Positions 22,451-27,776 of a stretch of DNA of 32,948 bases are shown in pieces (within the stretch, counting starts at the first letter, position 1; the number at the start of each line of letters is the position of its first letter). This DNA is from Candidatus Liptonbacteria bacterium CG11_big_fil_rev_8_21_14_0_20_35_14 (GTDB taxonomy: Bacteria; Patescibacteriota; Minisyncoccia; UBA6257; XYB1-36-10). Made by a program: the position numbers and the translations under genes. The notes below the pieces were generated by a model. That model saw nothing but the letters and a program-made list of their open reading frames with translations. It was not told where the DNA came from and made no database searches. Where the stretch lies: contig PCWO01000050.1 of assembly GCA_002796205.1 (NCBI GenBank), forward strand, positions 3,090-36,037. The letters are read 5' to 3'.

Positions 22451-23212
22451 TTAATATAATATACCTTGTATATTAGGGCGTTTGGCTTCTATAAAAATTC
22501 TTGTTTTAGATAAATCAGCGCCAACATCTGGATGAGTTATATCAAATCTTCTTTGTTCAAAAGATAAAACATCAAAAATAATAGTGCGCGAGGCGCCTAT
22601 AATAGTATTAACTTCATTGTAGTATAGGGCGTTAATAATAATTTCTGGAAAAGGGTTGGTTTCATTATTAGAGACTAGGCCGTTGGTTTTAATAAATTGC
22701 CCATCGGTTGAATGTGTTACTTGAATAGTACCAACTTTAGGAAGGCTGAAATTATTTCTAGATTCCCATAATTTTTCCCTATTAACAACAACGCTTATCT
22801 GGTCGGATATAAATTTATCTATAGCCGGATGAATAATATATTTTATTTCAGAGGGATAAATAAATGATTCATTTTCTATTATATTTTTATCGTTGGAAGG
22901 ATCTTTAATTGAGTATTTAAAATTAACAACCCCATAGGTGCTATTAGGATTTTCTATGCGTAAAACTATGGAGGATTTTTGATTACCGGAATCCAAAACC
23001 AGGGCTTCTACCACTTTAATATCGGATAGATTTTTAATACTACAAGCAATACAACTGCCACCACAATCTATATTTTCTTCTAATCCATTTAATTTATTAT
23101 CAAAACAGGATGGGGCCGGGGAGGCTATATTATATCCCCCATATCCAATTAGTCCTAGGATAATTAAATAAAAAATACCGTATAAAAATTGTTTTAGAAG
23201 GCGGTTTTTCAT
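22451..23212 (-). CDS. Membrane-anchored hypothetical protein with a CFDN...DCGGSCIAC motif
   Basis: I place the start at the ATG at 23212 (MKNRLLKQFLYGIFYLIILGLIGY...). The first 53 codons of the track ORF overlap the 5S rRNA and its terminator and are rejected. It heads the SEDS-mltG gene string. Confidence 0.65.
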   Translation of the reverse strand: MKNRLLKQFLYGIFYLIILGLIGYGGYNIASPAPSCFDNKLNGLEENIDCGGSCIACSIKNLSDIKVVEALVLDSGNQKSSIVLRIENPNSTYGVVNFKYSIKDPSNDKNIIENESFIYPSEIKYIIHPAIDKFISDQISVVVNREKLWESRNNFSLPKVGTIQVTHSTDGQFIKTNGLVSNNETNPFPEIIINALYYNEVNTIIGASRTIIFDVLSFEQRRFDITHPDVGADLSKTRIFIEAKRPNIQGILY

Positions 23213-23225
23213 ATAAACATTATAG

Positions 23226-23256
23226 TACAAAAAAACGACCTTAGGTAGTCGTTTCT
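23226..23256 (-). terminator. Intrinsic terminator after the 5S rRNA
   Basis: On the minus strand, AAACGAC / GTCGTTT stem (23233-23239 with 23248-23254) with an 8-nt loop, followed by TTTTGTAC. Confidence 0.5.
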
Positions 23257-23271
23257 CTGTAGTTTTGAGCA

Positions 23272-23392
23272 ATGATATCCCGGCAAATCCTACTTTCCCC
23301 ACATTTAGAGTATCATCGGAATTATATGATTTCACTACCGAGTTCGGAATGGAATCGGGTGGGACACACATAATTAAATCACCGAGAAATCA
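23272..23392 (-). rRNA. rrf: 5S ribosomal RNA
   Basis: Minus strand contains GTCCCACCCGATTCCATTCCGAACTCGGTAGTGAAA ... GGGGAAAGTAGGATTTGCCGGGA, matching the universal 5S core. The terminal helix is extended by a 14-bp stem, GTTTTGAGCAATGAT (23403-23389) / ATCATTGCTCAAAAC (23276-23262). Mature ends are therefore uncertain by about 10 nt. Confidence 0.88.
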
Positions 23393-23404: not shown

Positions 23405-23433
23405 AATACGTTTAAGTAAATAACAAATCAAAC
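23405..23433 (-). promoter_or_regulatory. 3' strand of the 23S precursor processing stem
   Basis: Its plus-strand sequence aatacgtttaagtaaataacaaatcaaac is nearly identical to the reverse complement of 27777-27803. In the minus-strand transcript the two flanks therefore pair. The stem is about 25 bp with 1 mismatch, 1 G-U pair and a 2-nt bulge. It brackets the 23S, like an RNase III processing stem. Confidence 0.6.
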
Positions 23434-23555
23434 CGCTCATGGTTGAGACGACTGCTCGTTCATTAGTACTCCTTGGCTAAACACATTACTGTGCGTACAC
23501 CTAGAGCCTATCAACGTGGTAGTCTTCCACGAGAACATATATCTTATCTTGGGAG

Positions 23556-23591
<36 letters not shown>

Positions 23592-23668
23592 TCCGAACAT
23601 AGCTACTCGGCATTTCACCTGGTGGCAAAGCCGATAGACCAGTGGTTCGTCCAACTCGGTCCTCTCGT

Positions 23669-24295
23669 CGCTTACACTTAATTAGTGTTTATTCCCCTAT
23701 TTCTAGGGGCGCAGACTATATCTTCACCCAATCTTTGGAACTTAGAAGTTTAACTTCATATTCTTTAAATTTCTCTTAAATTTTTAAGAGGATTGGGGAC
23801 GGCGTATTAGTATTATTAAATAATACTCTCTCCTTTCGGATCAGTCGTTACGGGGTCAAACCTAAAATTTTCACAAGGTCTTCTTTACTTTTCTTTCTAT
23901 GTGATTTGTAATTTTCACTTTGAATAGACAAAATCCAATTTATAATTTTTTTAAGATCCGATTTGTTTAAATCTGATATTTTTTTGGATTCTAATAAAGA
24001 TGATGTTTTTAACATAATTTCAGCCTGTTTTTTCTTAAACTTAAGATCTCGTCTTTTTTTAACTTGAATCATTAAACTACCATCTCCATCAAGAAAGCCT
24101 GCTATATATGCCATATTTATTTTAGATTGACTTCCCACGGTATTGCCTTAAAAATTATTGGTCCTCAAGTATTATACCATAAGAGACGGACCGTTGTCAC
24201 TTATGAGCCGTGATACTGACCATATAATTTATGAAGGTTTCACCGTTATTAGCCGTTTTGTCATCATGAATTACTTCATGAAGTAGCAATTTTTT
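23669..24295 (-). mobile_element. Group I intron inserted in the sarcin-ricin loop of 23S rRNA (between U2656 and A2657, E. coli numbering by my alignment)
   Basis: Exon sequence ...GCTGACTCTAGT | ACGAGAGGACCGAG is contiguous only after removing 627 nt. The upstream exon ends in U and the intron ends in G. P1 is possible (exon UAGU with intron GCUA). The group I core S element GAAGATATAGTC lies at 23711-23725 and the R-like GTAACGACTGATC at 23837-23851, with GACUG/UAGUC forming P7. Confidence 0.8.
23848..24138 (-). CDS. Internally deleted LAGLIDADG homing-endonuclease remnant (96 aa), intron-encoded
   Basis: It retains the [12 protein letters not shown] motif and the C-terminal helical region (KKKQAEIMLK...). 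Roughly 60 residues of beta-sheet DNA-binding core are missing relative to the neighbouring intron ORF and to I-CreI. The track start is GTG; an ATG start lies at 24114. The stop overlaps the intron R element. Confidence 0.7.
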   Translation of the reverse strand: MGSQSKINMAYIAGFLDGDGSLMIQVKKRRDLKFKKKQAEIMLKTSSLLESKKISDLNKSDLKKIINWILSIQSENYKSHRKKSKEDLVKILGLTP

Positions 24296-24358
24296 ACTAG
24301 AGTCAGCTTCCCTCAAATATTTAACGCCTGCAGTAGATAGAGACCAACCTGTCTCACG

Positions 24359-25062
24359 CATGTATTCCCATTATTACTAATGGCATTGGACTATAAATTC
24401 ATCCTTAATCTATTAAGGAGGCTAACGTTTAGTCTCTACGGGTGTCATTATACGTTTTTTTCTATTTTTAGAATAATTTAAATCTTTATAGATATAAATT
24501 AAATCTAAAAGTTTTTGAAAATCATTTTCATTTTTAACAGATTTTTTAGCTTTTATAATTTTAAGCATTAAATCTGCTTGTTTTTTCTTAAGAATTAAAA
24601 ATGGAGAAATATTTTTAATAAAAGATTCAATGTCATCTATACGATTTATTGAATATTCTAATATTCCATCTTTTCTTAATCTTAATTTTCCAAAACCAAT
24701 TAAGTTGCATATTTTCTTAAAAGCTTCTTTATCTTTTTGAGCTTGAAAAAGAACTATATATAAAGCTATTTAAAAATCATATTTATATGATTTATTAGGT
24801 TTAGCTCTAGCATATATACTACCGTCTCCATCAAGGAAACCGGCTATGTATGATTTCTTAATTGGTGTAAGTGATTTTAACATATAAGACTTCCCTCGGT
24901 ATTATCCTAACATATGACAGGTTATTTTAAAATAACTTATCACTAGGACTTCACCGATATAAGTTAGCTTTACACATAGAAATTACTTTCTATGGCCGCC
25001 GTGTATGATGTCATTTGCCTCGGGCTCAGACTGTTTAAAAGCCGATAAATATCCGCTTCTAA
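24359..25062 (-). mobile_element. Group I intron at the L2593-type (I-CreI-type) site of 23S rRNA
   Basis: Exon sequence GGGTTCAGACCGT | CGTGAGACAGGTTGG is contiguous after removing 704 nt. The upstream exon ends in U and the intron ends in G. P1 is possible (exon CCGU with intron GCGG). R element GTAGAGACTAAACG lies at 24426-24439 and S element AATTTATAGTCC at about 24388-24399. Confidence 0.82.
24422..24883 (-). pseudogene. I-CreI-like single-motif LAGLIDADG homing endonuclease with one in-frame TAA (codon 38)
   Basis: Manual translation: [152 protein letters not shown]. The internal stop is at 24770-24772. The ORF is absent from the track because the stop splits it. Confidence 0.78.
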
Positions 25063-25283
25063 ACGGTCTGAACCCAGCTCGCGTACCTTTTTAATTGGCG
25101 AACAGCCAAACGCTTGGGACCTTCTCCAGCCCCGCGCTAAGATGAGCCGACATCGAGGTGCCGAACCTTGCCGTCGCTATGGACGCTCGGGCAAGACTAG
25201 CCTGTTATCCCCAGGGTAGCTTTTATCCGTTGTCTCCGACCTTCCTGTAAAGGTTCGTCGGGTCATTAAGTTCCGCTTTCGCG

Positions 25284-25314
<31 letters not shown>

Positions 25315-27187
25315 CAGCTTTTGCCTTTATACGACCAACTCGATTTCCATCCGAGTCTAGCTGACCTTTAAACTCCTCCGTTACTTTTTAGGAGGATTCC
25401 GCCCCAGAAAAACTGCCCACCAGGCACTGTCTCCATAAGGTTTACCAAATAGATTCCTTATAGGTTAGACCTTGCCCCAATAAAGAGTGGTATTTCATAT
25501 TGCGACTCCATCCCGACCGAAATCGGAACTTCAAAGTCTCCCACCTATGCTACGCATTAAAAGAACAAGACCAATACCAAGCTACAGTAAAGCTCCTGGG
25601 GTCTTTTCGTCCCACTGCAGGTAACCCGCGTCTTCACGGGTATCGTATTTTCACCAAGCTTCTCGCTGAGACAGTTCTCCAGTCGTTACACCTTTCGTGC
25701 GCTCCGGAACTTACCCGGAAAGGAAATGCGCTACCTTAGAACGGTTATAGTTACCGCTGACATTGACGAGGGCTTCGGTCAGTCAGCATCTACCCGAAAG
25801 CAGATACCGCCAACGTTAACCTTCTCGCATCGGTCAGGTGTCACCCCCTATACATCCACTTACGTGTTAGCAGGGAGCTGTGTTTTTGATAAACAGTCGC
25901 CAGAGATTCTTTAGCTGCGGCCACCCGAAGGTGGCAGGCCTTATTGCGAACTTACGGCCGCTATTTTGCCGAGTTCCTTAGCGAGATTTCACTTGTTCCC
26001 CTTGGGCTACTCGCCCTACCCACCGGTGTTGGTTTGCGGTACGAACACCTATGCCTTAACTCTAGAGGCTTTTCTTGGAAGGCTCTGCGATTGAATCACT
26101 TGAGGGGCTTTAGCCCTCAAATTTTCGCCGGATTTTGGAGGTTGCTATTAAAAGCAGATAAGTCGATTTACGGCTTACCCATCCTACAATCAAGCGACGC
26201 CAAACCATTAAGGCGATCAATCTCTTTTCCTCCGTCCCCTCATTGAAAAACATAGGTGGGGCTGGAATATTAACCAGCAATCCATCGCGTGCGGCTTTCG
26301 CCATACACTAAGGGTCGCCTAACCCGTGGCTGATTGCCAGTGCCACGGAAACCTCGGGTTTTCGGGGTGCGGATTTCTCATCCGCATTGTGGTTACTCAT
26401 GCCAACATTCTCACTTCTATACGCTCCAGCAATTTTCACAAATCACCTTCAGTGCATATAGAACGCTCTCCTACCACTTATATTTTAAAAAAATATAAAT
26501 CCGCAACTTCGGTACTACGCTTAGCCCCGTTACATTCTCGGCGCATCTTGCCATTGAATAGTGAGTTGTTACACACTCTTTAAAGGATGGCTACCTCTAA
26601 GCCCACCTCCTATCTGTCTATGGCACTATACTACCTTGCATGCACTTAGCGTAAATTTTGGGACCTTAGTTTGCGATTAGGGCTGTTTCCCTTTTGACCA
26701 CGGAGCTTAGCCCCCGCAGTCTAACTCCTGAGTTATATTGTATGGTATTCGGAGTTTGATTGGTCTGGCGAAGTTTCCTCCTACTCAGACCATCCAGTGC
26801 TCTACCCCCACACATAAACACTCAAGGCTAGTCCAAAAACTATTTCGGAGAGAACCAGCTATTACCAGATTCGATTAGCTTTTCACTCCTTACCACAGGT
26901 CATCCGAAGGCGTTAAACGACCTAACGGTGCGGGCCTCCCCCTACCTTTCGGTAGGGTTCACCCTGCCCATGGCAAGCTCATCTGGCTTCGGGTCTTATC
27001 CATATCCTAAACGCGCTATTAACACTCGCTTTCGCTACGCCTTCCTTCCGTAGAAGTTAAACAAAGGATATACATAAACTCGTTGGCTCATTCTTCAATA
27101 GGCACGGCGTCATCCACGATAAATCGGGACTCCGCCTCCTTGTAAGCATACGGTTTCAGGTTCTATTTCATCGGCCTCACCGGCCTG

Positions 27188-27224
<37 letters not shown>

Positions 27225-27776
27225 ATCACTAAAGATATTTAGCCTTACGAGACAGTACTCGCAGATTCCCTCAAGGTTTTCTGCCCTCGAGGTACTCAAG
27301 AATATATACAAAAAAGTGAGCACGTTTTCGTCTACAGGACTTTCACCTTTTTTAGTTCGGCTTTCCAGCACGACTCGACTAACGTGTCCATTTATAACTT
27401 TTCTCTTTCCTCAACCTAAATCATTAAACTAGGGTGATCTAGGTTGAAAAAAGAATGTATATACCTTACAACCCCAAAAATTAGTAAACTAATATTTTGG
27501 TTTGGGCTCTTCCCTTTTAACTCGCCGCTACTCAGGGAATCACTATTTGTGTTTTCTTTTCCTCCGCTTACTGAGATGTTTCACTTCAGCGGGTTTGCAT
27601 ACATAAAATGTATAATACAGGTTTACTGTACTGGGTTTCCCCATTCGGAAATCTCCGGATCGTAGGTTGCTACACACCTCCCCGAAGCGTATCGTCGTTA
27701 CGCCACGTCCTTCATCGCTCTTTTAGTGTCTAGGCATCCACCGTATGCCCTTATGCAATCGTCTCAACATTGAGAA

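Follow-up and report, generated by a model that had tools for sequence, protein, structure and literature searches.

The closest described system is a class of insertions that CPR bacteria carry in their 23S rRNA genes. Tsurumaki et al. (2024, J Bacteriol, PMC11270868) analysed 348 CPR 23S genes and defined 14 frequent insertion sites, with LAGLIDADG_1 found predominantly in the insertions at 1917, 1931, 1952, 2593, 2604 and 2657 (23IS6-8 and 23IS12-14). Position 2657, termed '23IS14', is thus a frequent site of group I introns with LAGLIDADG_1 in CPR, and for 23IS9-11, 13 and 14 the authors note that group I introns were previously unreported in other bacteria. ORF-less and deletion forms share the sites of the intact forms, the decay stage of the homing cycle is described generally for CPR introns, and CPR genomes usually carry one rrl copy (PMC11270868). 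The endonuclease tested in that study, I-ShaI, comes from 23IS7 at 1931 and not from 23IS14. The paper shows no structure or covariation for 23IS14 and has 0 occurrences of the word 'sarcin'; in the searchable library, no literature was found tying the sarcin-ricin loop, helix 95 or LSU position 2656 to an intron or a homing endonuclease.

Here we describe a 627-nt insert in the sarcin-ricin loop of a 23S rRNA gene. It lies in a window of 32,948 nt, the whole stretch of DNA that was analysed. An earlier note on this DNA had suggested that the loop might not be a catalogued group I site, but the 2024 catalogue lists 2657 as 23IS14 (PMC11270868) and the premise of novelty therefore fails. The intron is not a new kind of system, its site and class having both been published in 2024. 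What is new is a covariation-backed structure for 23IS14 and the recognition of the sarcin-ricin loop as its site, together with the failure of 23IS14 at the Rfam gathering score, the in-frame nature of the deletion in its ORF and an intron-less twin contig. We consider it highly probable that this insert represents a group I intron which is spliced and carries a dead homing-endonuclease gene.

The split 23S gene and its intron-less counterpart

The rRNA unit of the window is encoded on the minus strand in the order 23S-5S, with the 5S gene at 23386..23278 (Rfam, gathering threshold). The bacterial LSU model at the Rfam gathering threshold covers only 27768 down to approximately 25022, stopping early because two introns interrupt the 23S gene. 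The first exon runs normally and ends ...GGGTTCAGACCGT at 25063, after which the gene is arranged as follows.

24359..25062, minus strand: group I intron at U2593, 704 nt, 63 nt upstream of the 627-nt intron
24296..24358, minus strand: exon 2 of 23S, 63 nt (E. coli 2594-2656), CGTGAGACAG...GCTGACTCTAGT, between the two introns
23669..24295, minus strand: 627-nt insert, 5' end AAAAAATTGCTAC, 3' end TAAGTGTAAGCG
23430..23668, minus strand: 3' exon of 23S from A2657 (ACGAGAGGACC...), containing domain VI and what remains of the sarcin-ricin loop; the limit 23430 is approximate

A MAFFT alignment against the E. coli 23S gene L001 placed the 704-nt and 627-nt insertions after its positions 2591 and 2654. 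This reference is a 2902-nt copy with AGTACGAGAGGACC at 2652-2665; in standard 2904-nt numbering the same motif is 2654-2667, where A2660 is the target of ricin and sarcin cuts after G2661. The intron sites are therefore U2593 and U2656, and the 627-nt insert (24295..23669) splits the sarcin-ricin loop between U2656 and A2657. The insert coordinates, the 63-nt exon and the site after U2656 had all been proposed in the earlier note and are exact in this alignment, which likewise puts the 704-nt intron at U2593, where an L2593-type neighbour had been claimed. The last four bases of exon 2, UAGU (24299..24296), are the exon strand of P1, and exon 3 opens at 23668 with ACGAGAGGACCGAG. One base of the boundary is formally ambiguous, A24295 being the same as A23668, and the U...G rule settles the choice.

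When the proteins of neighbouring genes and of the intron ORF were looked up by exact match, at least 12 contigs from independent samples (ENA, JGI 3300025034 and Logan) were retrieved. Across both introns they keep the order of the window, at 98.6-100% identity, so that the insertion is no artefact of assembly. At least about 99 homologous introns occupying this site in other genomes also argue against an assembly error or chimera, to which we give next to no chance.

By contrast with these contigs, JGI contig Ga0073993_150257 (L151, 1936 nt) lacks both introns. It joins window positions 26812..25063, 24358..24296 and 23668..23546, and aligned to the window gene without its introns it shows 0 mismatches and 0 gaps, with 100% identity over 1936 nt. 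It scores as a single continuous LSU match and lies entirely within 23S rRNA, and the U2593 intron, too, is missing from it. The intron boundaries are confirmed to the nucleotide by this contig, whether it derives from RNA or DNA. The ligated junction is CUCUAGU-ACGAGAGG, also given as GACTCTAGT-ACGAGAGG. When a metagenome collection was scanned, a 30-mer across this junction was found to be the same in 97 uninterrupted 23S genes, and exact excision thus recreates a normal helix 95. As an organism-specific transcript probe the 30-mer was rejected, its matches being mostly the 23S of other organisms; one match, L151, was exact. Exact look-ups of a 100-aa ORF of exon 1 and of a 105-aa antisense ORF over both ligated junctions returned none on record.

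Two origins come into question for L151: mature spliced rRNA, or an allele of the window gene without introns. We lean towards mature rRNA because all DNA contigs retrieved, at least 12 from independent samples, keep both introns yet vary by occasional SNPs, whilst L151 has zero differences over 1936 nt though both introns are gone and lies wholly inside 23S, as expected of an rRNA transcript assembly. That it is instead rDNA of a co-existing strain without either intron, the introns being polymorphic and recently gained or lost, is a serious possibility to which we give somewhat less than an even chance. The collection is described as metagenome contigs, and intron-less alleles are expected after endonuclease decay in the homing cycle (PMC11270868). 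An origin in DNA would be compatible with group I identity and bears only on what the contig proves. In the literature the sample type of Ga0073993 was not found, only Ga0073930, a hot-spring sediment metagenome, being mentioned. Should L151 prove to be mature rRNA, splicing and ligation at both 2593 and 2656 in a CPR bacterium would have their first direct in-situ evidence.

Homologues and the group I core

Species-representative bacterial and archaeal genomes were scanned with the pattern ATATAGTC-N(25-55)-ACGAGAGGAC, in which the S element is followed at short distance by the second half of the sarcin-ricin loop, with no terminal G required. At least 120 loci were obtained. Among the matches listed, at least about 99 are homologous introns at the same site, nearly all from Patescibacteria/CPR, with the core motif CCGTAACGACT upstream at approximately 99 loci and the expected 23S sequence downstream at 93. 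The comparison with catalogues and other CPR 23S genes, proposed as a check in the earlier note, shows the site to be common, which by the terms of that note itself removes the novelty. Approximately 19 other loci among the matches listed are chance matches outside rRNA genes, as are the non-CPR matches (Tundrisphaera, Arenicellales, Alistipes and others), which lie outside 23S genes. Host labels of the homologues include Parcubacteria/Paceibacteria, Microgenomates, WWE3, WS2, Moranbacteria, Saccharibacteria and the like. One locus, L075, is labelled 'Gammaproteobacteria', a doubtful label given approximately 75% identity to E. coli domain V.

Introns of the family start about AAGAAATTGCTACTTC right after ...TAGT, with the conserved 5' end AAGAAAUUGCUAC, and every one that lies in a 23S context has G as its last base, right before ACGAGAGG. 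ORF-less members measure 317-370 nt and the modal members approximately 760-820 nt, their P6 loop holding a LAGLIDADG ORF of 162 codons; intermediates are scattered between them, and the 627-nt copy of the window is one of these intermediate sizes.

The 627-nt intron has a complete group I core, comprising P1 with its U.G pair, P2-P9, a P3/P7 pseudoknot and the terminal G. Its elements are given in 5' to 3' order of the transcript; MFE denotes the unconstrained minimum free energy fold.

24284..24295, minus strand: intron part of P1, with AA (24295..24294), loop AAAA and internal guide UUGCUA (24289..24284); 99.7% of helix 1 cells paired
24264..24281, minus strand: P2, UCAUGAA / UUCAUGA with loop GUAA; 7/7 pairs with changes on both sides in the 63 introns; in MFE fold
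24252..24256, minus strand: P3 5' strand ACGGC, partner 23803..23799; 4/5 pairs covary
24137..24246, minus strand: P4-P5 domain with branched P5 extension, on which MFE fold, pair count and the Rfam alignment of homologue L062 agree
24246..24242 with 24141..24137, minus strand: P4, ACGGU with ACCGU
24237..24234 with 24149..24146, minus strand: P5, CCUU with AAGG
24127..24136, minus strand: P6 5' strand GGG-AA-GUCAA, partner 23859..23852 (UUGACCCC); 5/8 pairs covary
23843..23846, minus strand: P7 5' strand GACU in R element GUAACGACU, partner AGUC 23717..23714; invariant in 62/62; aligned by RF00028
23809..23840, minus strand: two peripheral hairpins between P7 and P3', P7.1/P7.2-like, UCC-GAAA-GGA (23840..23831) and AGUAUUAU-UUA-AUAAUACU (23827..23809); in MFE fold; the family carries variable hairpins there
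23799..23803, minus strand: P3 3' strand GCCGU, crossing P7 to form the P3/P7 pseudoknot
23727..23797, minus strand: P8, CCCAAUC / GAUUGGG closing a branched extension; in MFE fold and Rfam alignment
23714..23725, minus strand: S element GAAGAUAUAGUC, J8/7 plus P7 3' strand; invariant in alignment A1
23694..23712, minus strand: P9.0 5' strand GCG (23712..23710) and P9 CCCCUA-GAAA-UAGGGG (23709..23694); 3/3 and 5/6 pairs covary
23669..23688, minus strand: extra 3' hairpin ACACUAAUUAAGUGU (23688..23674), then AAGC and terminal G 23669; most family members are without the hairpin

Covariation was assessed in an alignment (A1) of 63 introns including that of the window, over 52 pairs and against 500 shuffles. 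Standard pairs are formed by 94.2% of the cells, as against 83.3% in the shuffles and 34-47% when partners were slid by 1-3 columns. Changes on both sides occur in 32 of the 52 pairs, with 377 compensatory cells, and none of the 500 shuffles reached any of the observed covariation measures. The covarying helices are P2, P3, P6, P9 and P9.0, in the proportions listed above, and an independent anchor-based count on 70-73 introns is concordant with the A1 pair count. P7 and most of P4 show no variation across A1 and hence receive no covariation support; P7 being unvarying, covariation says nothing for it. Its GACU/AGUC pairing, unchanged in 62/62 introns, would be consistent with a guanosine-binding site. 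The register of P8 in the pair count holds for its two central pairs only, and in the 63 introns these are conserved or vary on one side only. In P1, UAGU|AA pairs with UUGCUA and U2656 makes a U.G wobble at the splice site. This U.G pair is present in 63/63 aligned introns and in 73/73 of the anchor-based count, window included.

Folding recovered much the same architecture. RNAalifold of the family returned P1-P6, P8 and P9, and when the core of the window copy was folded with its ORF deleted, the unconstrained MFE structure contained the P2-P9 helices and both extra hairpins. The window has a single copy of GAAGATATAGTC, at 23725..23714 of the minus strand; alone this is weak, as 23 of 100 shuffles held at least one match with one mismatch allowed. 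The earlier note's reading of the insert as a group I intron inside the sarcin-ricin loop is thus borne out by the covarying core and by at least 99 homologues at the same site. The individual hallmarks it had named can all be located: the U before the 5' splice site, the terminal G, the UAGU/GCUA option for P1 (U.G in 63/63), the S element at 23725..23714 and an R element whose P7 strand GACU is invariant in the family.

The Rfam group I model, which the same note had proposed as a check, gave a divided answer. Intron_gpI (RF00028) does match the window at 23693-23868 (31.9 bits, E = 7.4e-6), aligning P4-P9, and scores the ORF-less homologue L062 at 31.1 bits, but neither copy reaches the gathering score of 50; taken as pass or fail, the check is misleading. 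At the gathering threshold, a search of the window and seven ORF-less homologues gave no Intron_gpI match for the U2656 family. Two gathering-level matches in the loci of ORF-less homologues are other introns there. The score is low because the model cannot place P3, owing to the P7.1/P7.2-like insert. The shortfall is thus a limit of the model and not evidence against the fold.

Details of the 3' end set the window copy apart from its relatives. The distance from S element to 3' splice site is 45 nt, compared with a modal 28-29 nt in the family. P9.0 contains one mismatched pair, which could affect the choice of 3' splice site. The extra hairpin just before the 3' splice site could also affect that choice. 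In the family architecture P9 is capped by a GNRA-type loop.

The structure bears on whether the exons are ligated at all. CPR 23S genes carry short insertions resembling intervening sequences at other sites (PMC11270868), and the insert could in principle be excised with its exons left unligated, fragmenting 23S at the sarcin-ricin loop in the manner of intervening sequences processed by RNase III. We consider this very improbable. A covarying group I core, a guide, the U.G pair and a terminal G are features of ligating introns; the insert ends form no long RNase III stem, the closing helix of the MFE fold being only 3 bp; a break at U2656/A2657 would cut within the loop motif; and the junction in L151 is continuous. 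The long end stem and missing ribozyme core of fragmenting intervening sequences were accordingly not found in the 627-nt insert.

Retention of the intron in mature 23S, or a splicing defect that makes this rrl copy a pseudogene, is similarly hard to credit. There is a precedent in Simkania, where, going by the title of the report, a 23S group I intron is unspliced, and the endonuclease gene here is decayed and the 3' hairpin atypical. Against this, samples agree to 100% in the exons, which are intact, and all core helices can form in the window copy. From established knowledge of the loop, 627 nt inserted into this factor-binding element should abolish its function. CPR bacteria usually have a single rrl copy (PMC11270868), and a perfectly intron-less version, L151, exists.

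Endonuclease decay and proposed mechanism

The P6 loop of the intron contains the remains of a homing-endonuclease gene.

23848..24114, minus strand: ORF of the P6 loop, a LAGLIDADG remnant of 88 aa counted from ATG, or of 96 aa counted from GTG at 24138

In a protein alignment with the modal 162-codon homologues, this ORF lacks 63 codons (189 nt), deleted in frame at approximately 24043/24042, and the L6 insert is correspondingly 260 nt in the window compared with a modal 449 nt. The deleted codons span the beta-sheet region of the homologues (...GKxKxRFMATICFYQD...ELRINGF...LLPFI), whilst the LAGLIDADG helix (AGFLDGDGS) and the C-terminal helices are kept. Pfam LAGLIDADG_1 scores the window ORF at a borderline 24.1 bits (cut-off 23.1) and an intact homologue at 47.8 bits. 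A complete single-domain LAGLIDADG fold of approximately 150-170 aa with DNA-binding beta-sheets is not found in the 88-aa ORF. The ORF is a decayed homing-endonuclease gene that has lost its DNA-binding sheet. Its last codons, ...LGLTP-stop, overlap the P6 3' strand and J6/7 (GGUUUGACCCCGUAA), which explains why even heavily deleted copies retain that end. The U2593 intron resembles it in that its LAGLIDADG_1 ORF is broken by an in-frame TAA, and with 22.5 bits it, too, lies below threshold for the Rfam group I model.

We propose that, in the precursor rRNA, exon bases UAGU and the first two intron bases would pair with the guide UUGCUA to form P1. An exogenous guanosine held in P7 would attack after U2656, and the 3'-OH of U2656 would then attack after the terminal G 23669, joining U2656 to A2657 and restoring the AGUACGAGAGGACC loop. 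This chemistry may proceed as protein-free self-splicing. Homing would originally have spread the intron, by way of a single-domain LAGLIDADG endonuclease whose gene lies in the P6 loop; in rDNA that lacks the intron, the family enzyme would cut the loop at its highly conserved sequence. Past homing of the 627-nt intron itself is likewise presumed. With 63 codons gone from its endonuclease gene, including those for the DNA-binding beta-sheet, the window copy is therefore predicted to be immobile. It would represent a fixed intron that has entered the decay phase of its homing cycle.

Several consequences follow for annotation and for the host. Automatic annotation at the Rfam gathering threshold cuts the 23S gene at the first intron and loses the last approximately 300 nt, including the sarcin-ricin loop, and at its gathering score the Rfam group I model overlooks the whole U2656 family. 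Even a ribosomal loop that ranks among the most conserved and the most critical for function is used as a homing site in CPR bacteria. Where rrl is present in a single copy, no ribosome can do without accurate splicing. Since translational GTPases are activated by a loop that ligation must first complete, a single-rrl cell could gate new large subunits by the rate of intron removal. That splicing in the sarcin-ricin loop is such a control point over large-subunit activity or maturation, and not mere tolerated parasitism, strikes us as a long shot. The intact endonucleases of the family have as their predicted target the near-universal rDNA sequence CTCTAGT|ACGAGAGGACC (CTCTAGTACGAGAGGACCG), and could be of interest for enzyme engineering.

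Comparison with known introns

In overall design the 627-nt intron may be IA-like, a resemblance drawn from the extra hairpins between P7 and P3'. Subgroup IA introns such as those of phage T4 td and Twort share with it the P7-P3' hairpins, an AAGAUAUAGUC S element and a peripheral loop that holds an ORF, a likeness of architecture.

The neighbouring intron at U2593 occupies exactly the site of the organellar and bacterial LSU introns at L2593. These introns, which we presume to be tied to I-CreI-type LAGLIDADG enzymes, are like the U2656 intron in being group I and in having a peripheral loop with a LAGLIDADG gene of the single-motif kind, and both would have spread by homing into highly conserved LSU sequence. 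They differ in site, and the U2656 family scores below the Rfam gathering threshold.

Two closely spaced group I introns in a bacterial 23S gene are the subject of a 2007 report, whose title indicates a very short internal exon, comparable to the 63 nt here. The window differs from that case, as far as the title describes it, in its sites (2593 and 2656) and in its CPR host. The sites in the other gene are, we assume, 1917/1951.

It is 23IS14 that the 627-nt intron matches on every count: site, group-I-like structure and homology, a single-domain LAGLIDADG_1 ORF, here a remnant, and a CPR host. That class likewise includes forms with large ORF deletions, alongside ORF-less ones. The 627-nt intron is a further member of 23IS14, the class published in 2024; it shows no essential difference from it, its own marks being the additional hairpin at the 3' end and the clean loss of 63 codons in frame.

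A second intron and an intron-less contig

The 23S gene carries a second group I intron at site U2593, separated from the sarcin-ricin-loop intron by an exon of only 63 nt.

24359-25062, minus strand: second group I intron, 704 nt, site U2593
24883..24422, minus strand: LAGLIDADG_1 ORF of the U2593 intron

Codon 37 of this ORF is followed by an in-frame TAA, which breaks the reading frame; with the stop masked, its Pfam score was 48.3 bits. Like the sarcin-ricin-loop intron, the U2593 intron is precisely missing from JGI contig Ga0073993_150257 (L151; 1936 nt), which was 100% identical to the 23S gene of the window minus both introns, cut at the predicted bonds. The contig is either mature spliced rRNA, recovered as an assembled transcript, or an allele that lacks the introns.

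Comparison with E. coli 23S rRNA also revealed short extra insertions.

27393-27501, minus strand: insertions of 56 and 43 nt, near E. coli positions 270-280
26158-26182, minus strand: insertion of 25 nt, after position ~1477

These may be expansion segments or intervening sequences. The 25-nt insertion is still present in L151.

Annotation of the rRNA genes

At the gathering threshold, the Rfam LSU match covered 25022-27768, stopping at the first intron (25022). Automatic annotation would thus drop the final ~300 nt of rRNA sequence and, with them, the sarcin-ricin loop. In the remaining part of the gene (23430-25062), neither of the two introns was detected by the Rfam Intron_gpI model (RF00028) at its gathering threshold.

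Two further features were listed beyond the 23S gene.

23278-23386: 5S rRNA gene
22451-23371, minus strand: 306-aa ORF

The ORF had no Pfam match and, as listed, shares ~94 nt with the 3' part of the 5S rRNA gene, indicating that its actual start is probably farther downstream. Upstream of the 23S gene, the nearest 5 kb contain no 16S gene; the rRNA genes are therefore unlinked.

Homologous introns in other genomes

Introns of the same family, at the same 23S site, were found on MAG contigs binned as Elusimicrobiota, Methylomirabilota, Gammaproteobacteria and Mycoplasmatales (loci L020, L050, L075, L109 and L114). For L075, identity of the 23S to E. coli in domain V was only ~75%, and on this sequence comparison the taxon label of at least this locus seems to reflect a mistake in binning or naming. 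L020 was ~82% identical in the comparison, and its label may be either correct or mistaken.

The homologous sarcin-ricin-loop intron of a Ca. Nomurabacteria MAG (L037; JAITGI010000021.1) is 889 nt long. Its P6 loop, where the modal class of the family carries a LAGLIDADG ORF, is without an ORF. A reading frame lies instead within the extension of another core helix, P5.

Intron nt 131-598, inside the P5 extension: 155-aa ORF

The predicted protein matched GNAT acetyltransferase domains (Acetyltransf_3, 38.4 bits; Acetyltransf_1, 32.9 bits). Judged by these domain matches, the ORF is cargo other than an endonuclease, which is unusual for a group I intron.
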